From positions 15,517 to 79,516 of the forward strand of contig DAHUYN010000004.1 in assembly GCA_027315165.1 (NCBI GenBank): a DNA stretch of 64,000 nt, given 5' to 3'. The position numbers and the translations under genes were made by a program. The DNA is from Thermoplasmata archaeon (GTDB lineage Archaea > Thermoplasmatota > Thermoplasmata > Lutacidiplasmatales > UBA184). Under the pieces are notes generated by a model. That model was given only the letters and a program-made list of their open reading frames with translations. It was not told the DNA's origin and searched no databases. Positions within the stretch are counted from its first letter, which is position 1. Every line of letters begins with the position of its first letter. Positions 35,353-64,000 of this stretch are shown one piece after another.

Positions 35353-35366
35353 GACCTCGCGCCCCC

Positions 35367-37232: not shown

Positions 37233-37235
37233 CCT

Positions 37236-46233: not shown

Positions 46234-46244
46234 GATGCATATGC

Positions 46245-46457: not shown

Positions 46458-46864
46458 AGGCGCTCGACACCCCTGCGCTGCTCGAGATCCTTCGAGGGCG
46501 CCCGCCCGCGAAGGCGCTCCTCCGGTCGCTCGCCGGCGAGGAGCTCGCGACGACGGAGCTGAACCTCTACGAGCTCGACAGCCTCGCCCGCATCGAGGGA
46601 CCTCGAGGCCTCGAGCGGCGCCTCACGGCGATCGAGAGGCTCCGCCGCCGCCTCACGACCCTCCCGATCGACGAGCGGGCCACGCGGGCCGCCGCCGCGG
46701 TCTCGAGAGGGCACCGACGGGGCAACGCTCGTGAGCTGTCCCTCATGCTCGGAGCCGCGGTCGCCGCCGGGTGCTCCGAGTGGATCACGACCCGGTCGCT
46801 CGCGCCGACTGAGATGCCTGGGCACCTCAAACTGAGGCTGGTCGGCCAAAGGGCCACTACGTAG
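46454..46864 (+). CDS. vapC: PIN-domain toxin VapC
   Basis: MKALDTPALLEIL (LDT..L), acidic residues at ELNLYELD, PIDERAT, LMLGAAVAAGCSEWITT. 136 aa. Confidence 0.8.
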   Translation: MKALDTPALLEILRGRPPAKALLRSLAGEELATTELNLYELDSLARIEGPRGLERRLTAIERLRRRLTTLPIDERATRAAAAVSRGHRRGNARELSLMLGAAVAAGCSEWITTRSLAPTEMPGHLKLRLVGQRATT

Positions 46865-48534: not shown

Positions 48535-49503
48535 ATGATGGCAGCGGAGGCGAAGAAGGTCTGGATGGATGGGAAGCTCGTCGACGGCGCCGACGCGAAG
48601 GTGCACGTCCTGAGCCACACGCTCCACTACGGTGTGGGGGTCTTCGAGGGCATCCGCTGCTACGATACCCCGAGGGGGCCGGCGATCTTCCGTCTCGAGG
48701 AGCACGTCGCGCGGCTTCTCGCGTCGGCCAGGGTCTACCGGATGCCGAGCCCGTACTCGCACGAGCAGATCTGCCGCGCGATCGTCGATACGCAGGCCGC
48801 CAACGGGATCACCCCGTCCTACATCCGACCGATCCTCTACCGTGGCGAGCCCGCTCTCGGTGTGAAGAACCAGAAGGGGAAGGTCTCGCTCGCGGTCGCC
48901 GCGATCCCCGCGAAGAAGTACCTCGGTGAGTCCTCGGACTCTGGTGTCCGGGCCAAGATCTCGCCGTTCCGAAAGTTCCACTCCGACTCGATCCCGAGCT
49001 TCGCCAAGACCTGTGGCAACTACATCAACAGCTACCTCGCCGGCATCGACGCGGCCGAGGACGGCTACGAGGAGGCGATCCTCCTCGACCACAACGGCTT
49101 CCTGGCCGAGGGGACGGGAGAGAACCTCTTCCTCGTTCGGGACGGCGTACTCTACACGCCGGGGCCGGAGTCGGATATCCTCCTCGGGATCACGAGGGCC
49201 TCCGTGATCGAGATCGCGAACGACCTCGGGCTCAAGGTGGTCGAGAAGCTGCTCACGGTCAACGAGCTGCTCGTCGCCGAGGAGGCGTTCTTCTCGGGGA
49301 CCTACGCCGAGATCGCTCCGATCCGCGAGGTCGGGCATTATCCGATCGGGACCGGCAAGCCGGGTCGCCTCACACGCGACATCCAGGACGTCTTCTACAA
49401 GCTCGTACGAGGAGAGGAGCCCCGCTACGCCAAGTGGCTCCACCCGGTCACGACGACCGCCGCCCCCGTGGCGCGGACCGCGCGACGGGCCGGGACCGCC
49501 TAG
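48535..49503 (+). CDS. ilvE: Branched-chain amino acid aminotransferase
   Basis: MMAAEAKKVWMDGKLVDGADAKVHVLSHTLHYGVGVFEGIRCY..., PLP-lysine region FRKFHSDSIPSFAKTCGNYINS, EGTGENLFLV. Start set at the internal Met doublet. Confidence 0.85.
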   Translation: MMAAEAKKVWMDGKLVDGADAKVHVLSHTLHYGVGVFEGIRCYDTPRGPAIFRLEEHVARLLASARVYRMPSPYSHEQICRAIVDTQAANGITPSYIRPILYRGEPALGVKNQKGKVSLAVAAIPAKKYLGESSDSGVRAKISPFRKFHSDSIPSFAKTCGNYINSYLAGIDAAEDGYEEAILLDHNGFLAEGTGENLFLVRDGVLYTPGPESDILLGITRASVIEIANDLGLKVVEKLLTVNELLVAEEAFFSGTYAEIAPIREVGHYPIGTGKPGRLTRDIQDVFYKLVRGEEPRYAKWLHPVTTTAAPVARTARRAGTA

Positions 49504-49976
49504 CGCGACCGACGGCGCGCGGGCGGTGCCGTCGGCTCCTCGACGTCGGGGTCCTCGACGACGGCCGGCGGAGGCTGGGGGAAGCCCCGGCGAGAGGTGT
49601 GGAGGTGCGGGTCCGGCCGCCAGACCAGCTCGACGCGGAGCCCGTCCGGCCCCTTGAGGAAGAGCGAACGCGAGTCATCCCGCTCCTTCTCGCCGACGAC
49701 GACGATACGGGCCCGTCGAACGCGGTTCTGAAGGCCGGTCCAGGTCGCGACACGCAGGGCGAGGTGGTGAATGCCGTCCGGCTTTCGTCCCTTCTCGGCG
49801 TCGCGCAGCCCGAGGACCTGGTCCCCGAAGAGGAGGAACGTGTGGTCCGGCCCCTCCCCGATCACGTCGAGGCCGAGCTGGTCGACGAAGAAGTGCCGGG
49901 CCTTGGCCCGGTCCGGGACGAGCAGGTCGACGTGGTCGAATCCGGTGAGCTCTATCTGCGAGACGGGCGGAGACAC
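49500..49976 (-). CDS. VOC-family (glyoxalase / bleomycin-resistance / dioxygenase fold) protein
   Basis: GFDHVDLLVPDRAKARHFFVDQLGL...IHHLALRV...GLRVELV. GTG start. The upstream 500 nt of the track ORF is non-coding. Confidence 0.65.
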   Translation of the reverse strand: MSPPVSQIELTGFDHVDLLVPDRAKARHFFVDQLGLDVIGEGPDHTFLLFGDQVLGLRDAEKGRKPDGIHHLALRVATWTGLQNRVRRARIVVVGEKERDDSRSLFLKGPDGLRVELVWRPDPHLHTSRRGFPQPPPAVVEDPDVEEPTAPPARRRSR

Positions 49977-50181
49977 ACGATCCCTCGAGCCAAAGGCTCG
50001 CCGCGGCGGAGCCGGCCACCGTATTTGGGCTCTTGGAGGTCCCGCGCCGGCGACACGACCCCGGTCGGGGACCGGGCCCGGTCCTCGCCGAAGCCACGCC
50101 AGTAGAGGAATTAAATAGGCGAAGAGAAGGGCGGCGTACCACCGGGTGTCGCCGTTGGAGAGGGAGGGGTCCGCGGAGCCC

Positions 50182-50226
50182 GAGCCCGCCCCGAACGAGC
50201 CCGCCCCGAACGAGCCCGCCCCGAAC
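50182..50226. repeat. Perfect tandem repeat, 3 x 15 bp (GAGCCCGCCCCGAAC)
   Basis: Read directly. It would encode EPAPN x3 if translated in the flippase frame. It sits between the divergent VOC and flippase genes. Confidence 0.9.
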
Positions 50227-50247
50227 GCCTCCCGTCTCGACGAGACG

Positions 50248-51837
50248 CTCCGCAGCATGAGCCGCGGGACGTCGGTGATGGTCGTCGCAACGCTCCTCGT
50301 CGTCGTCCTGCAGTTCTTCACACGCGCGATCGTCACGCGCAACGTCACGACGGACCAGTGGGGCGAGTTCAACCTCGGCTTCTCGCTCGCCTCCCTCCTC
50401 GCCCTCACCGCCGCCTTCGGGATCCCGACCGCGACCGCGAGGTCGCTCGCCTTCGAGCAGACGCTCGAGGCGCGGTTCGCGCTCGTGCGCAAGGCGATCT
50501 ACGTGAGCGTCCCGGTCGGGGCCGTCGCGGGCATCTTGGTCTACGTCTTCGCCGGCGCGATCGCCGCGCCGTTCGCCAAGGCCGGCCAACCGAGCCTGAC
50601 GCCCGTCTTCCAGCTGTTCTCGGTGAGCATCGCCCTGACGATGCTCTCGAACGTCCTCGTCGGGATCTTCCAGGGGCTCGAGCGGGCCGAGCCGTACGCG
50701 ATCTTCATCCAGATCGTCAACCCCGCGCTGTTCCTCGCCTTCACCGCGGCGCTCCTCGGGCTCCGGGCCGGGTTCGAGGGTGTGCTGATCGGCTACGTGC
50801 TCTCCTGGGTCGGCTCGTTCGCCGGGCTGGCCGTCTACACCTATCGCCGACTGCCCCCGCTCCTCCGCCGCCTCTCGACGAAGGAGTTTACGGGGGATGC
50901 GAGCGGTCGCGTCCCCTTCGTGGCCCTCTCGGTGACGCTGTTCGGCGTCGCCGCGCTCTCCTACGTCACCTCCTACGCCGACACGCTCTTGCTCGGCGTG
51001 TTCCGCGCGGCGACCCCCGTCGGCGAGTACTCCTCGGCGATGACGCTCACGCGGCTCCTCCTGGTCGGGACCGGTACGGTGACGTTCATCTACCTCCCGA
51101 TCACCTCGAGGCTGCGACGGCAGCGCGACTTCGAGGGCCTCCGGTCGACCTACATCACCGTGACGCGCTGGATGACCCTGCTCGCGGTCCCGTTCACGTT
51201 CGTCTTCTTCTTCGATGCCCGGTTCTCGCTCGCGTTCTCCTTCGGCCCCCTCCAGGTCGGCGGGAGCCAGGCCCTGATGATCCTCGTGGTCGCGAACACG
51301 CTCGCGATCGCGCTCGGCCCCTCCGTCTCGACCCTCGGCGGGCTCGGAGAGACGCGCCTGGTCCTGTGGTTCACCGTTGTCTCCGCCCTCTCGAACGTGG
51401 TGCTCTGCTTCGTCCTCATCCCGCCCTACGGGCTCGTCGGGGCCGCCGTGGCCTGGTCCGTCGCCCGGCTCGTGTTCCCCGCGCTCGCCCTCGCGAGGAT
51501 CTACCAGGAGCACCGCATCACGCCCTTCGGGCGCACCTTCGTCCGGCCCTCCCTGCTGAGCCTCGCCATCCTGCTGCCCGTCTTCGTCTTCCTCCTCCCC
51601 CGTCCGACCCTGATCTGGCTCCCGATCCTCGTCCTGTTCCCGCTCGTCGTCTTCCTCGGCTCGATTCTCCTCCTCCGGTGCGTCGAGCCGGGGGACCTCC
51701 ACTTCGCGATGACCCTCGAACGCCGCCTCGGCCCGGTCGCACGACCCATCCGTCGGCTCCTAGAGGCCCGCCTGGTCCCCGGCTCCGTGGTCCCCGAGAG
51801 CCTCCCGCCGCGTCGTCCGCGCGGACCGCCGCCCTAG
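50248..51837 (+). CDS. Polysaccharide biosynthesis protein / oligosaccharide flippase (MOP superfamily, Wzx-like), second copy
   Basis: 12 or more TM helices, a few tens of residues longer than the gene at 15290, with the same family layout. The start could instead be at 50146, which would include the tandem repeat. Confidence 0.7.
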   Translation, partial: LRSMSRGTSVMVVATLLVVVLQFFTRAIVTRNVTTDQWGEFNLGFSLASLLALTAAFGIPTATARSLAFEQTLEARFALVRKAIYVSVPVGAVAGILVYVFAGAIAAPFAKAGQPSLTPVFQLFSVSIALTMLSNVLVGIFQGLERAEPYAIFIQIVNPALFLAFTAALLGLRAGFEGVLIGYVLSWVGSFAGLAVYTYRRLPPLLRRLSTKEFTGDASGRVPFVALSVTLFGVAALSYVTSYADTLLLGVFRAATPVGEYSSAMTLTRLLLVGTGTVTFIYLPITSRLRRQRDFEGLRSTYITVTRWMTLLAVPFTFVFFFDARFSLAFSFGPLQVGGSQALMILVVANTLAIALGPSVSTLGGLGETRLVLWFTVVSALSNVVLCFVLIPPYGLVGAAVAWSVARLVFPALALARIYQEHRITPFGRTFVRPSLLSLAILLPVFVFLLPRPTLIWLPILVLFPLVVFLGSILLLRCVEPGDLHFAMTLERRLGPVARPIRRLLEARLVPGSVVPESLPPRRPRGPPP

Positions 51838-52490
51838 CCCGACCGGACGGTCCCGGGCGCCTGGCGCTGCCGCTGGAACTCGAGGGCGCGCCGCAGCACC
51901 TCGTCGAGGTCCTCGATCCCCTCGAGGGTGGCGACCCCTCCCGGAGCCCGACGGTCGGGCTCGGCCGACGGGACCATGTGGAAGCCGAACCGCTCGACGA
52001 TGGTCCTCGAGGCGGCGTTGTCACCGAGGACCGTCCCGCCCCCTCGCCGAACGCCGAGCTCGAGGCAGCTCCGGTACATCTCGATCGCGAGCGCTGTGCC
52101 GATCCCCCGACCCCGGTGGCCGTCGGCGACGAGGTAGCCGAAGCGGCCCCAGACGGGTTGCCCCGGTCGGGCGACGAACCGGATCGTCGCGTAGGCGCAG
52201 GGGGCCGCAATCGTCTCGGGGACGGCGACGAACACGAGGAACGTCAGGTTCGGCACGCGACGGAGAAGTCGGCGCGCCCAGCGCCTCGTACCCACCATCC
52301 AGAGGAAGAGCGGCACGAGGCGGAGCCGGTCCCGCGGGTACGGGTGGTGGAACCGACGGGCCTCGGCGGAGATCCCTCGGTAGAGTCGAACGAGCGCCGG
52401 GACGTCGCGAAGCCTCGCGGCCCGCCATTGGTAGCCGCGAGGGAACGGCCACGGCGCCGGGGGGTCGATGCGGGACGAATCGGCAGCCAT
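51834..52490 (-). CDS. GNAT-family acetyltransferase with a ~100-aa N-terminal extension (paralog A)
   Basis: HRGRGIGTALAIEM (motif A), FGF. A TATA-like CTTCTATACT lies 26-33 nt upstream of the ATG. Confidence 0.7.
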   Translation of the reverse strand: MAADSSRIDPPAPWPFPRGYQWRAARLRDVPALVRLYRGISAEARRFHHPYPRDRLRLVPLFLWMVGTRRWARRLLRRVPNLTFLVFVAVPETIAAPCAYATIRFVARPGQPVWGRFGYLVADGHRGRGIGTALAIEMYRSCLELGVRRGGGTVLGDNAASRTIVERFGFHMVPSAEPDRRAPGGVATLEGIEDLDEVLRRALEFQRQRQAPGTVRSG

Positions 52491-52515
52491 TCCTCACCCG
52501 GAGCGGAGGTTCGCG

Positions 52516-52525
52516 AGTATAGAAG
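52516..52525 (-). promoter_or_regulatory. TATA-like box (cTTCTATACt on the coding strand) for GNAT paralog A
   Basis: It is 26-33 nt upstream of the ATG at 52490. Confidence 0.35.
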
Positions 52526-52632
52526 GCATGGCTCTTGAACGCTCCCAGTAGCTTCTCCCAAACGAGCCCTTTCCCGCGACCGCGAGCTCCCGCGGTCGCT
52601 CCGGTCGAGGCGGCGAGATTCCCCGTCGCACT

Positions 52633-52640
52633 CTATATAC
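52633..52640 (+). promoter_or_regulatory. TATA-like box CTATATAC for GNAT paralog B
   Basis: It is about 45 nt upstream of the ATG at 52683. Confidence 0.35.
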
Positions 52641-52682
52641 CGGGAGACCGCGACCGGGCCGAGCCCAGGGAGCCGTCCGACG

Positions 52683-53339
52683 ATGCCCACCGAGCCCACG
52701 ACCCCGGCCGCCCCTCCGCCGAGCGGGCCGCGTCCCGAGGTCGACATCCGCCCGGCCCGATGGCGGGACCTGCCGACGCTCGTCCGGCTCTATCGGAGCC
52801 AGCCTCCCGCGTCGCGGGCCCTCTACCATCCCTTCCCGTTCGACCGACCTCGGCTCTACGCGATCTTCGCCTACATGGTCGCGACGCGGCCGTTCCTCAA
52901 GGGGATGGTCCGCCGAGGACGGTCGCGGACCGCCGTCCTCCTCGTCGCCCGCGTCGGGGGGTCTCGCCGCCCGATCGGCTACGGCAACGTGGCGTTCCAT
53001 CACGTCGAGGGCCACCCGCACGCGATCTTCGGCTACCTCGTCGACGAGCGCGCTCGCGGCCACGGCGTCGGGACCCGGCTCCACGAGGTGATGATCGACG
53101 AGGCGCTCCGCCTCGGCGTCACGAAGGGCGGCGGAATGGTCGTGGTCGAGAACACCGCGAACGTGCGGATCCTCGAGAAGCTCGGATTCCTCCTCACGCG
53201 CTCGGACATCGTCGACGCCGGAGCGCCCACCTCCGCCAACTACGTCTCCGAGGGCGACCTCGAGGCGATCGCCCGTCGGATCCGCGAGGGGCGCGTCGCC
53301 CCGAGCGGCCCGGACGCGGGCACCCCGGCTCCGCACTAG
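52683..53339 (+). CDS. GNAT-family acetyltransferase with an N-terminal extension (paralog B)
   Basis: It shares ARWRDLPTLVRLYR...YHPFPFDRPRLYAIFAYMVATR with paralog A (ARLRDVPALVRLYR...HHPYPRDRLRLVPLFLWMVGTR). Motif A ARGHGVGTRL. Confidence 0.7.
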   Translation: MPTEPTTPAAPPPSGPRPEVDIRPARWRDLPTLVRLYRSQPPASRALYHPFPFDRPRLYAIFAYMVATRPFLKGMVRRGRSRTAVLLVARVGGSRRPIGYGNVAFHHVEGHPHAIFGYLVDERARGHGVGTRLHEVMIDEALRLGVTKGGGMVVVENTANVRILEKLGFLLTRSDIVDAGAPTSANYVSEGDLEAIARRIREGRVAPSGPDAGTPAPH

Positions 53340-54355
53340 GCCTTGGCGCCGGCGAGCTGGGCTCGCGACCAGGTGATCGTGCGGTCCACGCCCTGCTCGA
53401 AGCCGACCCTCTCGGACCAGCCCAGCCTCTGGAGCCGGCCGTTGTCCGAGACGAGCGCCGGGCTCCCGACGACCTTCTTCTTGAGGTCGACGATCGGGAG
53501 CGAGCCCCCGACCTTCCGCCCGATCATCGCGGCCAGGTCCCCGACGGTCGTGCCCCGACCCGTCCCGAGGTTGATCGGGCCGGCGTCCTCGCTCGCGGCG
53601 ACCTGGACGAGCGCATCGATCGTGTCGTCGATGTACATCAGGTCGCGGACCGTGCTCGGGTCCCACAGCTCCATCCGACCCTCGGTCAGCGCCTGCCGGA
53701 TCAGCTGCGGGACGATGTAGTCGCCCGCCTGACCGACCCCGAAGGTGTTGAAGTTGCGGACGATCGCGACCGACCGGCCGTAGTTGCGCTTGTAGGAGCC
53801 CGCGAGGTCCTCACCGATGATCTTCGTCACCGAGTACGGATCGCTCCCCTTCCTCGGGTGGCCCTCGTCGATCGGAAGCCGCTCGGGCGCGCCGTAGACC
53901 GCCGCGCTCGACATGAAGACGACCCGCGAGGTCGCGGGCGCGTGCCGCAGGATGTTCTCGAGCCCGACGACGTTCACGTCGAAGGCGAGGGGGAAGTCCT
54001 GCTTGCAGGCGCGCGGGTTCGCGACGGCGGCGAGATGGAAGACGACCTCGGGGGAGCGCTCGGCCATCCCGCGTCGTACCTCCTCGCCGTGGCGGATGTC
54101 GAGCGGGACCGTCTCAAAGCCGTTCTGCGAAGCGAGCGAGGCCCAGTCCGGCCTCGCGACGGAGAGGTTGTCGGCCCCGGTGACACTCGCCCCCGCCTTC
54201 GAGAGCCGGAGGCAGAGGTGCGAGCCGAGGAACCCCGCGGCGCCGGTGATCAGGACCCGCTTGCCGGAGAAGCTCCGCTCGGCCTCGTCGATCGTGGGCG
54301 CCACGGGCCGTCGCGTGCGGGGCGGGGGTATAATGGTGGCGGAACGGTCTCGCAC
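53336..54355 (-). CDS. NAD-dependent epimerase/dehydratase (extended SDR; UDP-sugar epimerase or decarboxylase-like)
   Basis: Rossmann motif VLITGAAGFLGSHL, catalytic triad region MSSAAVYG...YSVTK. The real start may be internal (the N-terminal 25 aa are Pro/Arg-rich). Confidence 0.85.
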   Translation of the reverse strand: MRDRSATIIPPPRTRRPVAPTIDEAERSFSGKRVLITGAAGFLGSHLCLRLSKAGASVTGADNLSVARPDWASLASQNGFETVPLDIRHGEEVRRGMAERSPEVVFHLAAVANPRACKQDFPLAFDVNVVGLENILRHAPATSRVVFMSSAAVYGAPERLPIDEGHPRKGSDPYSVTKIIGEDLAGSYKRNYGRSVAIVRNFNTFGVGQAGDYIVPQLIRQALTEGRMELWDPSTVRDLMYIDDTIDALVQVAASEDAGPINLGTGRGTTVGDLAAMIGRKVGGSLPIVDLKKKVVGSPALVSDNGRLQRLGWSERVGFEQGVDRTITWSRAQLAGAKA

Positions 54356-54466
54356 GCCTGGGGCCGTCGGGACCCCGCACGGGCGCCGAGTCCGGTGTAG
54401 GTCTTACATAGGCTTCCCGTCTCTCCTCGCCAAGACCCGGGGCTCGCCGGGCGGACGCAGAGCCTG

Positions 54467-56950
54467 ATGCCTCGAGAGGCGGTAGCGGCGGAACCGGCGC
54501 GCGACGCCGTCGACGCGCCCGTCGCTCGCCCGTCGGTCCGAACCCGGCTCCGTCGGATCTCCGCCTACTGGTTCCCCAAGCGCCCCGTCCCCGCGCGCGC
54601 CGACGGGCTCCTCGTGCCCCCAGGACGCGAGCGCTGGGGCTACCTCGTCGCGGTCCTGCTCGCGCTCGCGGCCGCGGCGTTGTACGAGCACTTCTCGCTC
54701 GTCGCCCCGGTCCCGCCCGGCGGTGACGAGGGGTCGTGGCTCGTCCTCTCCTACCCGTATGTGGGCCTGCCGTTCCCGACGCAGGCCGTGCCCTGGACCT
54801 ACCCACCCGCCTCGATGCCGTTCCTCGGCCTCTCGGTGATCGCGGCGGGCGGGCCTCTTGGCGGGGCCCGGCTCTTCGCGGGGCTTCTCATCGTCGGCCT
54901 CGGCGTCTCCCTCTACGAGATGGGCCGGTCCCTGTTCCAGCTGCGGACGGTCGCCCTCGTCGTCGAGGCGACGCTGTTCGTCCAGCCCGACTTCCAGCAG
55001 CTCTACTACTTCGGCTCGTTCCCCAACATGTTCGGCCTGATCTTCTTCTTCCTCGCCATCGCCTACGCCGCGCGCTTCGTGCGCTCCCGTCGCGACCGGT
55101 ATCTCGCGCTGTTCTGGGTCTCGATGACGATCGCCGTGCTCGCCCACGAGCTCGTCGCGGTGTTCCTCCTCGGACTCGTCCTCACGACGGCGGTCCTCCT
55201 CCTGCTCTACCAGCGGCTCCCGCGCGAGCTGTTCGTGCGCCCCGCGGGGTATCTCGGCCTCGCCGGCTTCGGGGCCGCCACGCTCGCCTACTACGAGGGG
55301 ACCCGCCTCGCCAAGACGGCGACACCGAACTACACGACGACCGCCTCGCTCGCCCAGACGATGAGCCGGCAGCTGTTCCCGACGGTCCTCAAGCCGTTCT
55401 ACCTCCAGAACTTCTCGTCGACCGTGAACGGCTCGGGGTTCGCGGTGACGCCGATCTGGTCGCTCGAGCTCGTCCTCGTCGTGGTCGGGCTCCTGCTCGG
55501 CGTCTTCCTGTTCGTCCGCTGGGCCCGCCCCCGGCTGGTCGAGGTGCGCCACATCCTCCTCGCGGCCTGGCTGATCTCGGTCTTCGGCGTCGCCATCGCC
55601 TGCTGGGTCCTCGGGCTCGGGGCGGACTACCGGCGGTTCGCCTACTTTCTCTACCCGCTCACGATCGTCTCGGCCGGCCTCGGGCTCGACCTGTTCCTCT
55701 CCTGGCTCCTCACGCCCCCCCTTCCCGTCGTCGCCGTCAACGACTCCGCCCCCCTCTTCCGGGGCCTCCGGCCGGGCCCGTGGAGCCCGCGAGACCCGTC
55801 GCCGCGTCCGCGCGCCGTGGCCTTCGTCCTCATCGTCCTCACGCTGCTCCTCCTGACCTCGACCCTCGCCTACACCGTGCCGCAGGCCTCGAGCTACGCG
55901 AAGTTCTTCACGGCGACCGGGCATGACGGACAGTTCGTCTCCGCGATGCAGGCGATCTCGGCGTCGACCGTGTCGGGGGCGATCTACTCGTCGACGGAGT
56001 CCGTCGACCGATGGCCCGCGACCCTCACGGCACGCAATGTTTTCGAGGCGCGGGCCCCGACCGGCTTCACCTACACGCCGTCCCAGCTCCTGGGTGACGA
56101 GGAGGCGAACCTCGCTCTCTCCTACCGGTACACCGTGACGAACGGGCACGTGGCCGCGTCGATCCCCGGGGTCACCCCGGCGTACTTCAACGCCTCCCCC
56201 GTGATGTCGATCTACCTCTACGGGGTCCTCTACCAGGTCCTCTCGCTCACGCCGCAGAACATCTTCGTCGGCCTCGGGACGAACGCGACGACCTCGATCT
56301 TCACGAAGGGCGTCACGCCGGCGCCGCAGATCACGCTCCCGACGGACCCGACGAACGCGACCCTCACGCTCACCTACCCGGAGCCCGGCTACGAGGTCGT
56401 CGAGCAGGTCGCGACGCCGCCCGGCACCGACCAGCTCTCGATCACGCTCTCCGCGATCTCGAACGGCTCGGTCGCCTTCGGCGCCCTCCGTACGAAGCTC
56501 ACGTCGGCGACCGGTTCGTTCTCGAACGCGACCGCCCTCGGCCCCACGGGCTTCTCCTGGTTCACGAACACGACGGGCGGCAACGTGACCTCGTTCGGGA
56601 ATCTCACCTCCGGCGCTCTCACGGCCGTCGTGCCGGCGAACGCGACCACCGGCCGCGGGACGTCGGTGTCGATGCAGGTCAACGCGACGATCCCCGTCCC
56701 CGTGCTCTCGCTCTCGTTCACGATCGCCGCCCCCGGCACGTCGAACCCGACCTCGCAGATGAGCGGGTTCTTCAGCACCCCCGCGCTCTTTGAGACGTGG
56801 GGGGTCCGGTTCGCCCTCCTCTCGCTCGCCAACTCGAACACCGGCAGCGCGCCCAAGGCGTTCTACATGAACGAGTACGGCGGGACCGTCTTCTGGTCGG
56901 GGACCCTGTGGGTCGTCCTGCTCCTCCCCGTCGTTCTCGGTCCGGGCTGA
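54467..56950 (+). CDS. GT-C-fold-like integral membrane glycosyltransferase candidate (about 12 TM) with a ~400-aa sequon-rich extracytoplasmic C-terminal domain (paralog 1)
   Basis: First-loop acidic residue PPGGDEGSWLVLSYPYVGL, then MPFLGLSVIAAGGPLGGARLF, QQLYYFGSFPNMFGLIFFF, DYRRFAYFLYPLTIV. No WWDYG motif, so not a canonical AglB. Confidence 0.65.
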   Translation: MPREAVAAEPARDAVDAPVARPSVRTRLRRISAYWFPKRPVPARADGLLVPPGRERWGYLVAVLLALAAAALYEHFSLVAPVPPGGDEGSWLVLSYPYVGLPFPTQAVPWTYPPASMPFLGLSVIAAGGPLGGARLFAGLLIVGLGVSLYEMGRSLFQLRTVALVVEATLFVQPDFQQLYYFGSFPNMFGLIFFFLAIAYAARFVRSRRDRYLALFWVSMTIAVLAHELVAVFLLGLVLTTAVLLLLYQRLPRELFVRPAGYLGLAGFGAATLAYYEGTRLAKTATPNYTTTASLAQTMSRQLFPTVLKPFYLQNFSSTVNGSGFAVTPIWSLELVLVVVGLLLGVFLFVRWARPRLVEVRHILLAAWLISVFGVAIACWVLGLGADYRRFAYFLYPLTIVSAGLGLDLFLSWLLTPPLPVVAVNDSAPLFRGLRPGPWSPRDPSPRPRAVAFVLIVLTLLLLTSTLAYTVPQASSYAKFFTATGHDGQFVSAMQAISASTVSGAIYSSTESVDRWPATLTARNVFEARAPTGFTYTPSQLLGDEEANLALSYRYTVTNGHVAASIPGVTPAYFNASPVMSIYLYGVLYQVLSLTPQNIFVGLGTNATTSIFTKGVTPAPQITLPTDPTNATLTLTYPEPGYEVVEQVATPPGTDQLSITLSAISNGSVAFGALRTKLTSATGSFSNATALGPTGFSWFTNTTGGNVTSFGNLTSGALTAVVPANATTGRGTSVSMQVNATIPVPVLSLSFTIAAPGTSNPTSQMSGFFSTPALFETWGVRFALLSLANSNTGSAPKAFYMNEYGGTVFWSGTLWVVLLLPVVLGPG

Positions 56951-57022
56951 GCCACGAGCCTCAGGTCGCGCGTCGTCCTCGGAGCCGCCGAGGTGCCGGG
57001 CCCCCCTCGTCGGGAGGAGGGA

Positions 57023-59581
57023 CTACCGGGTCACCGGCCCGGTGGGAGGGCCGGCGCCGGCGATCGTGACGGGCCCGGGGATGGGGGACGGGAGGAGCAG
57101 CAGCCACCAGGGGCCCGCCACCGTCTCGACGGTCGCGCCGTACTCGGTCTCCAGATAGGCGACCAGAGGGAGGCCCGGCGAGGCCGCCGAGTTGTACACG
57201 AGGATCCACCGGACGCTCCAGTTCTCCCACTGCTGGTCCGCGGCGATCCACGGGCCGGGCCTCGGGAAGACGTTGACGAGCCCCGGCGTCGTCAGGTTGA
57301 GCGAGAAGGCGAGGCTCGAGTCGTTGCTCGCGGTCGCGGGCACGCTCTTGATCAGGATCGACGGACTGATGTTCAGCGCGGCGTTGTACGGCGTCACCTT
57401 GGCGAGCGCGGACGCCGGCGTCAGATTCGCGAACGTCGACACGTTCCCGCTCCGGAACTCCGTCAACCACGAGAAGCTCCCGTTCGTCGGGCCGTTGGCG
57501 ACGATCGTGCGGACCCCCGAGATCGTCGCGAGACGCGCCTCGAGATAGGAAAGGTGGAGGCCGGGCGCCGCCGTTGCGTTGAAGTTGACGAGGGCCGTCG
57601 GGGAGCTCGAGAGCGTCGTCACGGTCTCGTTGACGGTCACGAGCGGATTGACGAAGGTGAGCGAGTAGCCGAGCCCGCCCGCGATCGGGACGATCGGTGG
57701 GGCCGCCTGCCCCGAGGGAGAGACGATGACCGAGGCGCCGGTCGAGAACCCGACGAGGACCGAGCTCGACTGGAGGCGGAGGACCTGTCGGTAGGCATCC
57801 GAGGAGAACACGCCGTAGAGGGGGGTCGAGTTGAAGTTCGTCCCCGCGGCGCCCGGGATCGACGCCGACACGTACCCGTCCGTCGCCGTGTAGCGGGCTC
57901 CGAGCGTGATCGAGGCGAGCTCGCCGTCGAGGACCTGGATCGGCGTGTACTGCTGGCCGGTGCTGGCGAGGAGTGGCACCTCGTAGGTGATGCGGGACTG
58001 CGAGAGGGCGGACGGCCAGTGGCCGGCGTAGATCGAGGCGCTCAGGACGTTGCCGGGGATCCCGGACGCGGTCATCGCGTTGATCGCGTCGAGCATTGCC
58101 TGGTCGTGGCCCGTCTTGGCGTAGTAGCTCTCGTACGAGAGGCCCAGCGGGACCGTGTAGACGACCGCCGAGGCGCCGACGATCCCGACGAGCGCGAGCG
58201 TCAGGAGGACGTCGAGCCACGCGGCCCGGCGCCCGCTTCGCGTGAACCGCCAGCGGCGGCGCGTGTGACCGGGAAGGGGCGGGAGCGCGTCCACCGCCCG
58301 CTCGCTCGCCCAGTGGGTCAGCGCGAGGTCCGCGAAGTACATCAGGAGAAGGATCGCCGGGACGTAGAGGAAGTACTGGAACCGACGGTAGTCGGTGACG
58401 ACGTTGAGGACGTAGGCGGCCGTGATCCCGGCGAACGGCGCGAGGAACATCGCGGCGAGAAGGATCCAGGGCGTCGTGAGGTACTTCGGGGCCATCCACC
58501 GGAAGCCCAGGAAGAGGAGGAGCATCGCGACGGACGCACCGACAACGAAGTCGAAGCCCGCCGTCGTGCTCACCTGGGAGGTCGAGCCCGCGAGGACGTC
58601 GTAGATCGTCGAGAGATAGAGCGGCGTGAGCGCCGACGGGAGCAGGGAGCTCGACGTCGTCCCGCCGGTGACGAAGTAGCTGGGATGCCCGATGTTCGAG
58701 AGCGCGGTGATCCCGTAGTAGGCGCCGAGTCCGGCGGCGACGATGCCGGCGCCGAGGGCACCGGCCCGGCTCACCAGGAGCGTCCTCGGTAGACGGCCGG
58801 CGACGACGAGCCCCAGAGAGGCGAACAGGAGCGTCGCTGCGAGGACGACGGCGGAGAGCGAGTGAGCGAGCACGCAGCCGGCGACCGCGAGCCAGAAGCC
58901 GAGAAGGTGGCTCTGTCGGCGCGAGCGGAGGAACCGCATCAGAAAGCCGAGCGAGATCACGAGAAAGACGAGGGCGAAGAGATTCGGGTACCCGCCGAAG
59001 TAGTAGATCTGCAGGAAGTGGGGCTCGGCGAGCATCAGCCCCTCGGTCAGCAGCGCCAGTGACGGCCGCACCAGCAGGCTACGGGCCAGGAAGAAGACCC
59101 CGAAGCCGAAGGCGAGCATCACCGCGGCGATGTAGAGGCGGCCGCCGTTGAGCGGACCCCCGCCCGCGATCGTCGCGAGGCCGAGGAACGGGAACGAGAG
59201 CGGCGGATACCCGAACAGGGAGGAGACCGAGGCGTGCGCGAGCCCGACGTACGCGTACGAGGTGAGCAGCCAGGTCGACGGGTCCACTCCCGGTGGGATC
59301 GGATACGCCTCGGTCGACACGACCCAGAGGACGGCGAACACGACCCCGAGCGCGAGCGCGAAGACCGTGTACAGCCAGCCGTACGGGACATCGGCGGCGA
59401 GGCCCGAGGGCGTCCGGGGCTCGTCGGTATCGGTCGGAAAGACCCGCCCGACCCACGCGGAGAACGAGCGCCAGCGCTGGCGGATCCCCCCGACGACCCG
59501 CCGCGGGAACGAGCGCCTCTCCGCCACCGGGGCCGGTGCGGGGGCCGGCGGCGCCCCGGGGGCCGCAGGTGTCGCCGGCAT
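57023..59581 (-). CDS. GT-C-fold-like integral membrane glycosyltransferase candidate with a sequon-rich C-terminal domain (paralog 2, convergent with paralog 1)
   Basis: PPGVDPSTWLLTSYAYVGL, FPFLGLATIAGGGPLNGGRLY, LQIYYFGGYPNLFALVFLV, DYRRFQYFLYVPAIL. Collinear with paralog 1 along its entire length. Confidence 0.65.
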   Translation of the reverse strand: MPATPAAPGAPPAPAPAPVAERRSFPRRVVGGIRQRWRSFSAWVGRVFPTDTDEPRTPSGLAADVPYGWLYTVFALALGVVFAVLWVVSTEAYPIPPGVDPSTWLLTSYAYVGLAHASVSSLFGYPPLSFPFLGLATIAGGGPLNGGRLYIAAVMLAFGFGVFFLARSLLVRPSLALLTEGLMLAEPHFLQIYYFGGYPNLFALVFLVISLGFLMRFLRSRRQSHLLGFWLAVAGCVLAHSLSAVVLAATLLFASLGLVVAGRLPRTLLVSRAGALGAGIVAAGLGAYYGITALSNIGHPSYFVTGGTTSSSLLPSALTPLYLSTIYDVLAGSTSQVSTTAGFDFVVGASVAMLLLFLGFRWMAPKYLTTPWILLAAMFLAPFAGITAAYVLNVVTDYRRFQYFLYVPAILLLMYFADLALTHWASERAVDALPPLPGHTRRRWRFTRSGRRAAWLDVLLTLALVGIVGASAVVYTVPLGLSYESYYAKTGHDQAMLDAINAMTASGIPGNVLSASIYAGHWPSALSQSRITYEVPLLASTGQQYTPIQVLDGELASITLGARYTATDGYVSASIPGAAGTNFNSTPLYGVFSSDAYRQVLRLQSSSVLVGFSTGASVIVSPSGQAAPPIVPIAGGLGYSLTFVNPLVTVNETVTTLSSSPTALVNFNATAAPGLHLSYLEARLATISGVRTIVANGPTNGSFSWLTEFRSGNVSTFANLTPASALAKVTPYNAALNISPSILIKSVPATASNDSSLAFSLNLTTPGLVNVFPRPGPWIAADQQWENWSVRWILVYNSAASPGLPLVAYLETEYGATVETVAGPWWLLLLPSPIPGPVTIAGAGPPTGPVTR

Positions 59582-59695
59582 AGGCGTAGGGCTGCGAGCG
59601 GCCCTCGTATCTAAGTCTTGGGGAAACGCTGCGCCGCTTCGCTTCCGGCGCGCCTTGCGGTGCGTCGGAACGGCCTCCTCCTGGACCTTTCGGCC

Positions 59696-59710
59696 AAAGC
59701 GTTATAATGA
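59696..59710 (+). promoter_or_regulatory. BRE/TATA-like element AAAGCGTTATAATGA, about 30 nt upstream of the sulfatase-like ATG
   Basis: An AT-rich patch in GC-rich DNA at the appropriate spacing. Confidence 0.35.
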
Positions 59711-59738
59711 GGGCGAAGTCGGACTCCCCTTCGCACCG

Positions 59739-61178
59739 ATGGCGCCGCGCAATCTCGTCGTGATCGTCGCCGACACCCTCCGGGACCCGAAGGGCCTGCA
59801 AAGGGGGGGTCCGTCGTTGATGCCGTTCCTCGACGCGTTCGCCAAGAGCGGCGCCCGGTTCGAGCGCCTCCTCGCCAGCTCCTCCTGGACCGCTCCCAGC
59901 CACGTGAGCCTCCTCACGGGCCTCGACCCCTGGGAGACCCACTTCGAGGTCCCGGGGGCCTCGCGACGGCCGCCCCCTGCCGAGAGCGTCGCCGATGCCT
60001 GGGGGAAGGCGGGCGGCGTCTCCGCAGCCTTCTCGGCGAACTTCGTCGTCACGCCCGTCCTCGGGACGGCGACCGGCTACACGAGATTCAACCCGGGGTT
60101 CCCGTCGGGCACGGCGGGCAAGCTCCAGCTCGCGCTGCAGTTCAGCGGCTACGAGCGGCTCCTGTACTGGGCGGTCGAGGCGGGGTACCGCCCGACGGGG
60201 GGCCCGCTCGGCCGTCTCGGCTCGGCGGCGCTGAGCTGGGGGGGTACGGGTTTCTGCCGGTCGATCGGTGGGCTCCGCAACGGCGACACGATGGCCCGCT
60301 CGCTCGCGTCGTTCCTGCGCCGCCGCCGTCGAACGGGCGCGACGAAGCCCCTCCACCTGTTCTTCAACCTCGTCGAGGCCCACGAGCCCTACCTCCCTGG
60401 AGACAACGGAGGCCCGGCGGGAGGCCCTCGGGACCTCGCCCACCTGCCGAGCATCAACCTCGCGCGTCTCACCGATGCCCTGTCGCCCTACGGCTCTCCC
60501 GAGCGCTTCCAGGAGGTCTACCGGGCCTCGCTCCCCGTGCTCGACCGAGCGCTCGAGCGGATCGTCCGCGTCCTCCAGCGCTCGGGCGTCCTCGATAACG
60601 CGGTGCTCCTCTTCCTCTCCGACCACGGCCAGAGCCTCGGCGAGCAGGGGTTCTACGGCCACGGCTACTACCTCTTCGACGAGCTCGTCAAGGTCCCCGC
60701 CTACCTCTGGGAGTTCAAGGACGGCAAGCCGCTGCCCGCCCCTTCGCTGCCGACGGAGTGGGTCGACCACCGGCACCTGTTCGACCTCCTGCGGTCGGTC
60801 GCGCCCGACGGGGCCCCCGTGGCGCCTCAGGAGATCCTCACGGACAGCCTCGTCCGACGGGGGCCCGCCTGCTCCTACTTCGAGGGGCCGAGACCCCGGC
60901 CGCCCGGCGGCTTCGTCTTCAAGACCCCGCGCAGCCAGGTCTACCGCATGCTCCGGGTCCAGGCCGGCGAGGCCGCCGTGATGGGCATGTCGGACGGCGA
61001 GGGAAAGAATCTCCGCTCCGTCCCGACGCACAGTCTCGACCCGACCTCCCCCGAGCTCGAGGCGATCGCGCACCAGATCCTCGGGTCGATCCAGGGCGTG
61101 ACGGCCGCGACCTCGGGTCCCCAGAGCGCGCTCGATGCCCAGGTCGACGCCCGGCTCAAAAGCTGGGGCTACGACTGA
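59739..61178 (+). CDS. Sulfatase-like hydrolase/transferase (alkaline-phosphatase superfamily) with Thr at the nucleophile position
   Basis: VIVADTLRDP (metal site), SSSWTAPSHVSLLTG aligning to the sulfatase C-T-P-S-R-AALLTG with Cys replaced by Thr and Arg by His, FLSDHGQSLGEQG. The track ORF's upstream extension is junk. Confidence 0.75.
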   Translation: MAPRNLVVIVADTLRDPKGLQRGGPSLMPFLDAFAKSGARFERLLASSSWTAPSHVSLLTGLDPWETHFEVPGASRRPPPAESVADAWGKAGGVSAAFSANFVVTPVLGTATGYTRFNPGFPSGTAGKLQLALQFSGYERLLYWAVEAGYRPTGGPLGRLGSAALSWGGTGFCRSIGGLRNGDTMARSLASFLRRRRRTGATKPLHLFFNLVEAHEPYLPGDNGGPAGGPRDLAHLPSINLARLTDALSPYGSPERFQEVYRASLPVLDRALERIVRVLQRSGVLDNAVLLFLSDHGQSLGEQGFYGHGYYLFDELVKVPAYLWEFKDGKPLPAPSLPTEWVDHRHLFDLLRSVAPDGAPVAPQEILTDSLVRRGPACSYFEGPRPRPPGGFVFKTPRSQVYRMLRVQAGEAAVMGMSDGEGKNLRSVPTHSLDPTSPELEAIAHQILGSIQGVTAATSGPQSALDAQVDARLKSWGYD

Positions 61179-61391
61179 GCGGCGGCCCCATCCGGGGCGG
61201 CGCGCCGGGCCGAATGCGACGAGCCCCTCTCGCCAACACAGCCCTTAAGAGACACCGGACCCATCCGCGGCGGAACGGATGCGGGCTCACCGGAGGGGAT
61301 TCGGGGTCCCCCGTGGGGGTGCGGACCTCCATCGGGTTTCCGTCGCCACAACGGGGTCCAGCCCGGGACGGTCCGGTCTCAGGCAAGGGAC

Positions 61392-62864
61392 ATGAGACCC
61401 TCCAAGCGACGCGACTCGCTCCGGGCGCCCGTCGTCGTCGCGCTCTCGATCGTCGCCCTCATGACCATCGCCGGGACCGGCGTGAGCGGGGCCGCGGTCT
61501 CCGCTTCGGGCGGTGCGGGGGTCTCGGTCACCGTGACGCCGTCGCTCTCCTCGCTGCCGATCGGACCCTTCTCGAAGATCCAGCACGTCGTCATCGTGAT
61601 GATGGAGAACCGGCCGTACGACAACTACTACGGCGTGTACTGCACGGCCAAGACCAAGACCTGTCCGATGACGGCGAACGGTCTCCCCGCCAACCTCTGC
61701 GTCCCGCTCTACCCCTCGAAGGCCGGCTCGGCGTGCGAAGCTCCGTACAACTTCACGAGCTCCCACCTGGGTGGCGACCCGGACCTCCCCCATGCCTGGC
61801 AGAACGAGCACACGGCCTACGCGAACGGGTCGATGAACGGGTTCTACGGGGCCGAGGGGAACTCCAACCTGACGTTCGGCCACTTCAACGGGACGACGAT
61901 CCCGACCTACTGGGACCTGGCCCAGGAGTTCGGTCTGTCGGACGAGTTCTTCTCGAGCGTGATGTCGTTCAGCCTGCCCAACCACTGGTACCTCGTCGCC
62001 AGCCAGGCCCCCGCCATCGTCCTCGGGAGCTCCATCTGGAACGCCTCCTCGAACTTCGTGTATCTCAACGAGGCGAACTCGACCCCGACGATCGAGCAGG
62101 AGCTCAGCGCGCATCCCTCGGTCTCCTGGGCGTACTACGACTCGTCGCTCACGTCCTACCCGCGCGCCCTGTCGCTTCCCAGATACGACCCGCAGAGCGC
62201 CTACACCTTCTGGAATCCGCTCGCCGCGAAGAACCAGTCCTACTCCGGCACCGCCCCTTCGCACTTCCAGCCCCAGCAACAGTTCTTCTCCGACGTCTCG
62301 AACGGCGCCCTGCCCAACATCTCCTGGGTGATCCCGAACGGCCTCTACTCGGACCACACACCGGCGAACGTGACGTGGGGCGAGGACTTCGTCGCGTCGC
62401 TCGTGAACCTCGTCGAGACCTCCTCCTACTGGAACAGCACCGCCATCTTCCTCACGTGGGACGACTACGGCGGGTTCTACGACCACGTCGCGCCGCCCCA
62501 GGTCGACTCCGCCGGCCTGGGGATGCGGACCCCGCTGCTCGTGATCAGCCCGTGGACCCCGGCGGGGGTCGTCGGTCACAAGACGCTGTCGTTCGACTCC
62601 CTGTTGGCGTTCGTCGAGTGGCGCTGGGGACTCGGCTGCCTCGTCACGCGAGACTGCAACGCGACCATGCCTATCGGCTTCTTCAACTTCCACCTTCACC
62701 GGAATCCGGTGGGCTTCGAGCCCCCGAACGCGTCGACGTACCCCTATACCGCGCCCCCGACGGGGTCGCAGCCGTACATCATTTTGCCGAACACATTGCT
62801 ACAGATGATCCTCAACAAGACCTCGCCCGGCATCGTCGACCAGATCCCGGCCGACTACGACTAA
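61392..62864 (+). CDS. Secreted phosphoesterase-family protein (phospholipase C / acid phosphatase AcpA-like)
   Basis: Signal peptide. Hallmark [19 protein letters not shown]. ...[12 protein letters not shown].... More than 20 N-x-S/T sequons. Confidence 0.85.
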
Positions 62865-62957
62865 CGGTTTCGACGGGGTCCGTTGCCGTCCTCCGTACCC
62901 CGAGCTCCGCGCCGGCACGCCCGGGACGCCCGAACGCGACCTACATGCCAAAGCCTC

Positions 62958-64000
62958 ATGAACCGTGCACGCCTGCCCGACGAACGCATGCGCGCCTTGG
63001 GCCGGCCCGTCCTCGCGGCGCTCGCCGCCATCGCGCTCGTCCTCCTTCTGCTGCCGACGGCGACCGCGGCGAGCCCCTCGACCTCGAGCGCGGGGCACTA
63101 CACGGCCCCGAAAGCGCCGACCCCGTCGACCTTCCCGATCACCCACATCGTCTTCCTCATGCAGGAGAACCATGCCTACGACAACTTCTTTGGCGCCTAC
63201 TGCCCGACCCGCACGACCCTCTGCCAGCTCACGGGGAACGGGATCCCGGCGGGGACCTGCATTCCGACCTCGCTCACGAACCCGAACGCCAGCTGCATCG
63301 CGCCCTTCCCGCTCAACGAGAGCTTTGTGAACCACTCGTCGGGCGGAACGCACAACTGGCAGTCGTCGCACCTCGCCTACAACTCGGGGAAGATGAACGG
63401 CTTCTACGTGGCCTCACCGAACAACCGCTACGTGATGGGCTACTACAACGGCTCGACGATCCCGGAGTACTGGAACCTCGCCGAGCAGTACGCTCTCGGG
63501 GACTACTTCTTCTCGAGCGTCCTCGACTTCTCCCCGCCGAACCACTGGTACGCGCTCGCCGGCCAGGCGCCGAACGAGTCGTTGATCAACTACGCCCCGT
63601 CGCAGTCCGGCGGCTTCGGCGGACCGCTCACCGGGCCCCAGGAGATCTACCTCAACGAGTCGAACGCGACGACGACGCTGAACGACGCGCTCCAGCGCGC
63701 GAACCTCTCGTGGAACTACTACGATGACAGCCTCAACAACCAGAGCTACCAGCAGGCGCTGAACCTCACCCAGGCCGGCAGCCCGACACAGGTCAGCGTC
63801 TTCAACTACTGGAACCCGCTCGTCGCGAAGGCGGAGAGCTACACGAGCCCGATCGACTCCCACCTCCTGGACCGAAGCCGGTTCTTCACCGACGCCGCGA
63901 GCGGCAACCTGCCCTCGGTCTCCTGGGTGATCCCCGCGATCAACCAGTCGGACCACCCGATCGCCAGCATCGCCGCGGGGATGTCGTTCGTCGGCTCGGT
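62958..64000 (+). CDS. Secreted phosphoesterase-family protein, second paralog (3' end beyond the window)
   Basis: Signal MRALGRPVLAALAAIALVLLLLPTATAAS, hallmark ITHIVFLMQENHAYDNFFG. Collinear with the upstream paralog (PNHWYALAGQAP versus [12 protein letters not shown]). Open to the window end. The alternative start is the ATG at about 62988. Confidence 0.8.
   Translation, partial: MNRARLPDERMRALGRPVLAALAAIALVLLLLPTATAASPSTSSAGHYTAPKAPTPSTFPITHIVFLMQENHAYDNFFGAYCPTRTTLCQLTGNGIPAGTCIPTSLTNPNASCIAPFPLNESFVNHSSGGTHNWQSSHLAYNSGKMNGFYVASPNNRYVMGYYNGSTIPEYWNLAEQYALGDYFFSSVLDFSPPNHWYALAGQAPNESLINYAPSQSGGFGGPLTGPQEIYLNESNATTTLNDALQRANLSWNYYDDSLNNQSYQQALNLTQAGSPTQVSVFNYWNPLVAKAESYTSPIDSHLLDRSRFFTDAASGNLPSVSWVIPAINQSDHPIASIAAGMSFVGS

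Follow-up and report, generated by a model that had tools for sequence, protein, structure and literature searches.

Several bacterial pathways follow a common architecture, in which polyprenyl phosphate is charged with a sugar by a cytoplasmic GT-A enzyme and translocated by a flippase, after which a GT-C enzyme passes the sugar on to a polymer of the cell surface (PMC8035078). GtrABC, ArnC/ArnEF/ArnT and CsbB/GtcA/YfhO are all built in this way from a GT-A polyprenyl-phosphate-sugar synthase, a flippase and a GT-C transferase, and external carbohydrate-binding domains are described for large GT-C enzymes, for example AftD and, probably, YfhO (PMC8035078). In Haloferax, the GT2 enzyme AglD charges dolichyl phosphate, translocation depends on the MOP-like flippase AglR, and the dolichyl-phosphate-mannose (Dol-P-Man) mannosyltransferase AglS adds mannose to the protein-bound N-glycan outside the cell (PMC3871713, PMC3827465). 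The present analysis concerns a stretch of 64,000 nucleotides from a Thermoplasmata archaeon (NCBI GenBank assembly GCA_027315165.1, contig DAHUYN010000004.1, positions 15,517 to 79,516 of the forward strand; hereafter the window), in which a locus at 50146–64000 encodes a flippase, sugar-modifying enzymes and two convergent GT-C-like membrane proteins, here termed GTC1 and GTC2. On balance, and with modest confidence, the locus is read as the visible part of a conserved multi-component transmembrane glycosylation pathway of Thermoplasmata, in which the GT-C pair would transfer a dolichol-phosphate-linked sugar outside the cell.

The Thermoplasmata loci share with AglD/AglR/AglS of Haloferax volcanii the logic of a GT2, a flippase and a membrane transferase acting outside the cell, but they have a pair of transferases, contain tailoring enzymes of the amino-sugar type together with a sulfatase-fold enzyme, and do not come from Halobacteria. 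The tailoring enzymes of the Arn pathway (SDR, DegT, N-acyl) are paralleled by the SDR, DegT and GNAT proteins of these loci. Compared with the bacterial systems, the flippase is of the MOP/Wzx and not of the GtrA/EmrE type, the lipid would be dolichol, and the GT-C enzyme is duplicated. The window has approximately 70% GC, and mechanical lists of open reading frames (ORFs) were full of spurious frames; genes were therefore called by third-position GC. The nearest database relatives of the window proteins were found in metagenome-assembled genomes labelled 'Thermoplasmata archaeon', and the host is an uncultivated, high-GC soil member of the Thermoplasmata. Literature searches returned no study on the glycosylation machinery of high-GC soil Thermoplasmata.

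GTC1 (827 aa; 54467–56950, forward strand) and GTC2 (852 aa; 57023–59581, reverse strand) are convergent genes 72 bp apart, whose products have the same architecture. The two proteins could be aligned end to end with 34% identity over 822 aa (E 2e-112), which identifies them as true paralogues, in agreement with the original prediction. An AlphaFold2 model based on 21 homologues reached a pLDDT of 78.7 and a pTM of 0.70, and a Foldseek search with the model ranked eukaryotic STT3 at the top, followed by PglB, ArnT and DPY19. The model thus bears out the predicted GT-C architecture, with a multi-spanning N-terminal membrane domain of GT-C fold; the pair was not drawn to a non-glycosyltransferase family, and a transporter identity for GTC1 and GTC2 was ruled out by the fold evidence. 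Approximately 11 transmembrane (TM) helices could be counted from the model, with the N-terminus inside and the C-terminus outside, and the external domain of the GT-C proteins measured approximately 345–360 aa; the earlier figures of about 12 helices and 400 aa had to be revised, while the sequon richness predicted for this domain was retained. The C-terminal domain of GTC1 (approximately 345 aa, residues ~483–827) was modelled as a beta-supersandwich matching those of glycoside hydrolases and polysaccharide lyases (GH/PL), not the periplasmic domains of oligosaccharyltransferases (OSTs). Its external placement is supported by its sequons, 10 in 345 aa compared with 0–1 per cytoplasmic protein of the window.

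Placement of the pair in described families was less direct. Neither protein matched any NCBIfam model, and neither matched the Pfam profiles STT3 (PF02516), PMT (PF02366) or PMT_2 (PF13231); the YfhO profile also gave no match. GTC1 matched PTPS_related (PF10131) with 23.3 bits (E 2.6e-5), which is below the gathering threshold of 26.4 bits, and GTC2 did not match it. Searches of the sequences of solved structures in the PDB with GTC1 alone and with a 21-sequence profile returned no match, including none to an OST. An HMMER scan of 1.84 billion cluster representatives revealed 295 relatives at E<=1e-3 and 106 at E<=1e-30, and a renewed protein search with a 56-sequence alignment added no further relatives or names. 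The named core members are hypothetical proteins of Thermoplasmata, while distant ones belong to Thermoprotei, Thermosphaera and Nitrososphaerota; all named members are archaeal, and one Thermoprotei relative is labelled 'glycosyltransferase family 39'. Among 56 representatives scanned against Pfam (E<=0.01), 18 matched PTPS_related, 11 PMT_2, four DUF6798, three DUF6541 and one PMT, and none matched STT3. In addition, the orthologues P0008, P0016 and P0018 had already been annotated with PF10131, and the GTC2 orthologue of locus L005 matched DUF6541 (PF20176). These links to PF10131, PF13231 and PF20176 are the only ones at the sequence level; they cover just approximately 150 residues of the membrane domain and remain sub-threshold for the window proteins. 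PF10131 is listed as a GT-C clan (CL0111) family of unknown function (PMC7801869), and the papers examined describe no characterised member, so that the link to it gives the fold class and not the function. The family profiles and the fold comparison, which the original prediction had suggested as a check, both point to the GT-C class, through weak PTPS_related and PMT_2 links and through OST and GT-C folds. The sequence signal leans to the PMT_2/PTPS_related side of the clan, and the modelled fold slightly prefers STT3.

Conservation was assessed in an alignment of 21 sequences, in seven GTC1 and seven GTC2 orthologues, and in the 56 representatives (17% mean identity). Within the 21 sequences, an invariant aspartate, Asp87, is held by the motif P-V-P-P-G-G-D-E-G-x-W just after TM1, and further invariant positions include Y112-P113-P114, G183/P186/N187, R206, D387-Y388-x-R390, D408, H486 and W516. 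D87 lies eight residues past TM1 (helix 55–79), in the first outer loop, where an acidic residue is a signature of GT-C enzymes (PMC7801869). Among the 56 representatives, G183, R390 and W516 were invariant and D87 was present in at least 90%. The two sets of seven orthologues shared 70 positions identical in both clades, including D87, D387, R389, R390, D408, H486, W516 and P517, on account of which both paralogues look catalytically competent. A neighbour-joining tree placed the GTC1 and GTC2 orthologues in sister clades, indicating that the duplication is older than the divergence of these lineages and that both copies were retained. Since both paralogues look intact and are always kept together, the pair may either form different linkages or, by analogy with Pmt1–Pmt2, work as a heterodimer. 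EmbA–EmbB is another paralogous GT-C pair.

The strongest evidence for one functional module was obtained from gene order. Contigs carrying homologues were collected from JGI, ENA, Logan, NCBI and GTDB genomes and compared by tblastn, yielding the loci L001–L011. The core GNAT2–SDR–GTC1–GTC2–sulfatase-like was intact in every locus covering it (L001–L007), and the partial loci L008 and L009 agreed with it. All independent Thermoplasmata contigs that span the core show it in this order; the clustering is not a matter of chance, and the synteny check proposed with the original prediction came out in its favour. The consensus arrangement, with facultative genes in parentheses, reads GT2, GT4, GNAT3, (esterase), (PF04185 phosphoesterase), GNAT2, SDR, GTC1, the convergent GTC2, sulfatase-like, (DegT, GNAT1), flippase, (APS kinase), (VOC), BCAT; relative to it, the flanking blocks of the window are rearranged. 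Beyond the core, an AglJ-like Dol-P-sugar GT2 and a GT4 are present in most of the loci, frequently together with a PseC/ArnB-like aminotransferase and in some cases with an APS kinase. Identities to the window proteins were 76–80% for BCAT, 64–71% for VOC, 58–67% for the flippase, 62–66% for SDR, 55–71% for the sulfatase-like protein, 51–60% for GNAT2 and 39–58% for the GT-C proteins. In the distant Thermoplasmata locus L011, the GT-C proteins are only 23–27% identical to those of the window and two adjacent family members are arranged divergently, with GT2 (43%), GT4 (39%) and the sulfatase-like gene (27%, motif NWTVPSH) kept beside the GT-C pair. It is this co-occurrence at such depth that argues most strongly for a single module.

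All components listed in the original prediction were found between 50.1 kb and the end of the window. The predicted flippase for lipid-linked glycan is of the MOP/Wzx type (Wzx/AglR-like) and starts at 50146 (GTG) or 50257 (ATG) and ends at 51837 on the forward strand; it has approximately 11 hydrophobic segments, a Pfam Polysacc_synt match of 1.6e-17 and a weak NCBIfam WZX_like match. A 15-bp unit, GAGCCCGCCCCGAAC, occurs in three tandem copies (PAPNE x3) at approximately 50190–50235, between the two candidate starts. Orthologues of the flippase were syntenic in L001–L007, and those of the flanking genes for a class IV branched-chain aminotransferase (BCAT; 48535–49503, forward; Pfam Aminotran_4 7e-50) and a VOC/glyoxalase-fold protein (49500–49964, reverse; Pfam Glyoxalase 1e-10) occupied the same position beside it. 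Of a system of GT2, flippase and GT-C, the latter two components lie in the window, and GT2 is adjacent in L001–L003, L005–L007 and L011. This GT2 matched AglJ (TIGR04182, 1e-41, below the cut-off), a haloarchaeal dolichyl-phosphate hexose transferase (9e-25), the Pyrococcus Dol-P-Man synthase 5mlz (2e-10) and ArnC. All four of these proteins are polyprenyl-phosphate sugar synthases.

The acetyltransferases GNAT1 (51834–52490, reverse; Pfam Acetyltransf_3/_1) and GNAT2 (52683–53339, forward; Pfam Acetyltransf_1 6.8e-10) are 39% identical. GNAT1 orthologues adjoin the flippase or DegT in L003, L004 and L006, while GNAT2 orthologues were located immediately upstream of SDR at every covered position (L001–L007 and L009). 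The SDR gene (53336–54355, reverse; Pfam Epimerase 5e-44) encodes an NAD-dependent nucleotide-sugar epimerase, dehydratase or decarboxylase. Its best NCBIfam match was a LegB-like 4,6-dehydratase, below the cut-off, and its closest PDB relatives were UDP-glucose 4-epimerases, MoeE5 and UDP-glucuronic acid decarboxylase (UDP-glucuronic acid 4-epimerases/decarboxylases). The DegT protein of the related loci is PseC/ArnB/LegC-like, and N-acetylated amino-deoxy sugars are usually made by a combination of SDR, aminotransferase and GNAT. In three lineages (L001/L002, L005 and L007), the flippase and BCAT genes flank an APS kinase gene (PF01583, 4e-57; L001 18569–19126), a placement which gives a weak hint that activated sulfate is relevant, as a possible link to glycan sulfation.

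Two tandem genes of the PLC/AcpA family follow downstream, encoding phosphoesterase 1 (61392–62864, forward; PF04185 1e-68, 232.6 bits; 13 sequons), which is secreted or membrane-anchored, and phosphoesterase 2 (62958–64000, forward; PF04185 5e-46, 157.9 bits), which is cut by the window end. They are 39% identical, and each has one N-terminal hydrophobic segment (residues 14–32 in phosphoesterase 1). Both exceeded the PF04185 cut-off of 23 bits, and their NCBIfam PC_PLC and acid_phos_Burk matches were below the equivalog cut-offs. Orthologues lie near the locus in L001–L004, L006, L009 and L010, with a tandem pair also in L010. The PF04185 phosphoesterase of related loci is often fused to fn3, Kelch beta-propeller or PKD domains and reaches 921–1269 aa (L001 5230–7995; L003 3560–7369); in place of this fused form, the window has its two shorter paralogues.

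The gene next to GTC2 (59739–61178, forward; Pfam Sulfatase 1.7e-19) encodes a sulfatase-fold enzyme of the alkaline-phosphatase superfamily. Where a carrageenan sulfatase has GLCSPSR, this protein reads SWTAPSH, which places Thr at the formylglycine position and His in place of the motif Arg. The putative nucleophile is therefore Thr51, in the motif W-T-x-P-S-H, as the original prediction had it, and the predicted metal ligands are D12, D295 and H296. Among 23 orthologues, D12, W50, P53, H55, H215-E216-P217-Y218, S294-D295-H296-G297 and H308 were invariant, and position 51 was Thr in 22 and Ser in one. S1 formylglycine sulfatases have the C/S-x-P-x-R motif and a sulfate-binding Lys, whereas the window enzyme has neither; no conserved Lys was detected in the 23 orthologues, and a formylglycine sulfatase was thereby ruled out. 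A Thr nucleophile is found in EptA/MCR-1, LtaS/LtaP, BcsG and GacH, and the window enzyme has the Thr together with the D/E, D and H metal site of EptA/LtaS. The conserved residues indicate an intact metallo-enzyme with a putative Thr nucleophile like that of phosphoethanolamine and phosphoglycerol transferases, for which phosphoryl-type transfer is more likely than sulfate-ester hydrolysis. EptA and LtaS have a membrane domain and act extracytoplasmically, whereas the window protein has no signal peptide, no TM or hydrophobic segment and no sequons, which makes it a cytoplasmic enzyme; its orthologues are all 450–490 aa long with the same start. The phospho- or sulfo-decoration outside the membrane that had been ascribed to it is accordingly unlikely for an enzyme in the cytoplasm with no membrane domain. 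A cytoplasmic NPP-type phosphodiesterase (40761–42158, reverse; PF01663 2e-40) is encoded 18 kb from the sulfatase-like gene, and its orthologue in L011 (1627–3108, 52% identity) directly adjoins the sulfatase-like gene and GT2; it may belong to the same module.

From the gene content, paralogy, GT-C fold, conserved residues, topology and synteny described above, a donor, an acceptor, an order of steps, a reaction for the sulfatase-like enzyme and a role for the phosphoesterases can be proposed only conditionally. In the cytoplasm, a nucleotide sugar would be remodelled by SDR, the GNAT paralogues and, in many relatives, the PseC/ArnB-like aminotransferase. The AglJ/DPMS-like GT2 would charge dolichyl phosphate with this sugar, which GT4 may lengthen (in related loci the genes for these two enzymes are adjacent), and the Thr-type sulfatase-fold enzyme would modify the intermediate in the cytoplasm through a covalent Thr adduct. 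The MOP flippase would then carry the dolichol-linked sugar to the outer face, where GTC1 and GTC2 would transfer the sugar or short glycan to a surface acceptor by means of the invariant first-loop Asp87, either sequentially or as a heterodimer. The weak PTPS_related and PMT_2 links and the one GT39 label lead to families that use polyprenyl-monophosphate sugars, and a polyprenyl-phosphate donor finds contextual support in the AglJ/DPMS-like GT2 and the flippase of the conserved neighbourhood. The C-terminal beta-supersandwich domains most likely would hold a glycan acceptor, for example N-glycan chains on the heavily glycosylated proteins of the surface or a lipoglycan; a glycan is favoured because the supersandwich domain is GH-like and enzymes of the AftD/YfhO type offer an analogy.

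Several observations weigh against this proposed pathway. No member of the GTC1/GTC2 family has been characterised biochemically, and the first-loop region that holds D87 was modelled with low confidence (pLDDT <50 at residues 83–110). Homologues of the GT2, GT4 and DegT genes of the related loci, which say most about the donor, are absent from the 64-kb window, as is an APS kinase; any of these genes may lie beyond position 64,000. A supersandwich fold of the GH type, as modelled here, does not prove carbohydrate binding, and the link of the phosphoesterases to the pathway is positional only. The top fold matches are catalytic subunits of OSTs and not PMT or ArnT. In bacteria, MOP/Wzx flippases usually carry oligosaccharide units, and together with GT4 such a flippase fits en-bloc transfer of an oligosaccharide equally well as transfer of a single sugar.

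The last two points bear on the alternative that the pair is a divergent, AglB-independent OST, which would transfer en bloc to surface proteins a Dol-P-linked oligosaccharide built by the AglJ-like GT2 and GT4. In its gene set (AglJ-like GT2, GT4, sugar-modifying enzymes and MOP flippase), the cluster is reminiscent of agl clusters in archaea, the GT-C pair occupies the usual place of aglB, the external proteins are strongly enriched in sequons, and AglB-independent N-glycan transfer is documented in H. volcanii, where the enzyme was not identified (PMC3892788). STT3, AglB and PglB (GT66) have the WWDYG motif, Pfam STT3 and 13 TM helices, whereas the pair has approximately 11 helices, GH/PL-like supersandwiches, which do not match OST periplasmic domains, and an obligate paralogue. 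The motif, searched as W[WYF]D[YFW]G, was absent from GTC1, GTC2 and 12 orthologues (14 sequences), as the original prediction had noted for the pair; with the lack of STT3 in the 56 representatives and of any similarity to solved OSTs even by profile, the identity as a canonical AglB was rejected. The positional counterpart of WWDYG is x-[DG]-[RH]-W-P, whose conserved W516-P517 lies approximately 32 residues past the last TM helix, roughly where OSTs carry their motif, and the fold matches of STT3/AglB type point in the same direction; the Asp514 upstream of W516, however, is not kept in the GTC2 clade. On this evidence, an AglB-independent OST appears unlikely. A more elaborate form of the idea, in which a GTC1–GTC2 heterodimer acts as an AglB-independent, OST-like enzyme and transfers to surface proteins or lipids a Dol-P-linked oligosaccharide that the Thr-type sulfatase-fold enzyme has phospho- or sulfo-modified in the cytoplasm, is very doubtful. 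If true, such a heterodimer would be the kind of 'second OST' implied by the genetics of Haloferax volcanii (PMC3892788).

It is likewise improbable that the pair is a PMT/GT39-like protein O-glycosyltransferase heterodimer, which would transfer single sugars from a Dol-P-sugar to Ser/Thr of secreted proteins. The PMT_2 and PMT matches of distant members, the relative named GT39, the Dol-P-hexose-synthase-like GT2 in the cluster and the Ser/Thr content of the external domains (18–25%) would suit such an enzyme, and the obligate pairing parallels Pmt1–Pmt2, also a paralogous GT-C pair. However, the window proteins reach no PMT threshold and lack sequence-level membership, and no MIR domain was detected in the Pfam scans of the window proteins or of the 56 representatives. 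The first loop speaks on both sides, as the GTC1 clade has the D87-E88 'DE' pair known from PMTs and GTC2 has D-P; judging by the GT4, the aminotransferase and the GNATs, the sugar or oligosaccharide would be more elaborate than donors of PMT type. A narrower view accepts as one unit only the core of GNAT, SDR, GT-C pair, sulfatase-like gene and flippase, with the phosphoesterases, BCAT and VOC as unrelated neighbours (for example in phosphate scavenging or amino-acid metabolism) and the sulfatase-like protein as a hydrolase unrelated to glycan decoration. The phosphoesterase varies in side, copy number and domain fusions and does not occur in the sequence covered for L005 and L011, PF04185 members are generic phospholipases C and acid phosphatases, and the 76–80% identity of BCAT is housekeeping-like. 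In seven loci, nevertheless, only a few kb separate the phosphoesterase from the core, and the sulfatase-like gene adjoins GTC2 in every close locus reaching it and is again found with the GT-C pair in L011, at 27% identity. This restriction to the core is a genuine possibility, held tentatively beside the multi-component pathway, which is the preferred reading.

Analysis of N-x-S/T sequons in the window revealed 2.3–3.2 per 100 aa in external domains, approximately 2.4–6 standard deviations above composition shuffles, compared with 0–0.3 per 100 aa in cytoplasmic proteins. Enrichment was seen in every predicted external protein or domain (for example 3298–5886, 11934–13163, 30361–33720 and 61392–62864), reaching 22 where 7.4 +/- 2.3 were expected. 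Both giant surface proteins of the original prediction were present and sequon-rich. As sequons are enriched in external proteins and almost absent from cytoplasmic ones, the sequences imply pervasive N-glycosylation in the host organism, and high-GC soil Thermoplasmata clearly devote much to the glycosylation of their surface. A second MOP flippase (15290–17068, forward), with Polysacc_synt, MurJ and MatE matches, adjoins an ABC-2 transporter pair (13306–15064, reverse). Near it lies the sequon-bearing esterase at 11934–13163, whose orthologue is found inside the glycan locus of L001 and L010.

The GT4 at approximately 29 kb (29106), which the original prediction had counted with the glycan system, sits among GH57, GH15 and glucodextranase-type genes and also matches a starch-synthase domain; on this context its membership was rejected, and the gene (28860–30248) probably functions in alpha-glucan metabolism. 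The alpha-glucan cluster (28860–40699) consists of this GT4/GT5-like gene of glycogen-synthase type, a GH57 gene (34174–35352), a GH15 gene (35367–37232) and a gene for glucodextranase-N with GH15 (37424–40699). A gene for a beta-helix/NosD surface protein of 1119 aa and 26 sequons (30361–33720, reverse) interrupts the cluster. Insertion-sequence debris at 42838–46864, where the GC content dips to 0.64, comprises an ORF for the N-terminal DEDD part of an IS110-type element (42838–43242, forward) and one for the C-terminal IS110 Transposase_20 (45640–46131, forward). Between these two ORFs is an IS3-type HTH_Tnp_1 ORF (44244–44585, reverse), an arrangement suggestive of a single transposase gene broken up by a second insertion; a PIN-domain ORF (46235–46864) is next. 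No tRNA genes were found in the 64-kb window.

The strands alternate gene by gene across 49500–54466, and the overlap between convergent partners (BCAT/VOC, flippase/GNAT1 and GNAT2/SDR) is exactly 4 bp. The gaps between divergent genes of this region and the gap between GTC2 and the sulfatase-like gene are 111–192 bp long and contain isolated AT-rich, TATA-like boxes amid GC-rich DNA, for example GTATAGAAGG and CTATATACC within 52491–52682 and GTTATAATGAGG within 59582–59738. No k-mer of at least 11 bases was common to the intergenic regions as a shared regulatory motif, and only the AT-rich TATA-like boxes were prominent.

These findings overturn nothing, since the joint action of GT-C enzymes, flippases and dolichol-linked donors is established biology. 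The fold of the enzymes is well known, while the GTC family, its pairing and its partner enzymes were not previously studied. The family is archaeal and has no solved or characterised member, and it combines domains in a way not described before and comes as an obligate pair of paralogues. The pair is consistently linked to an unusual cytoplasmic sulfatase-fold enzyme of the Thr-nucleophile type, which is a candidate for a new activity in the alkaline-phosphatase superfamily. GTC1 and GTC2 may thus be regarded as candidates for the elaboration of glycans outside the cell in wall-less or S-layer archaea, possibly including glycan transfer that is independent of AglB.

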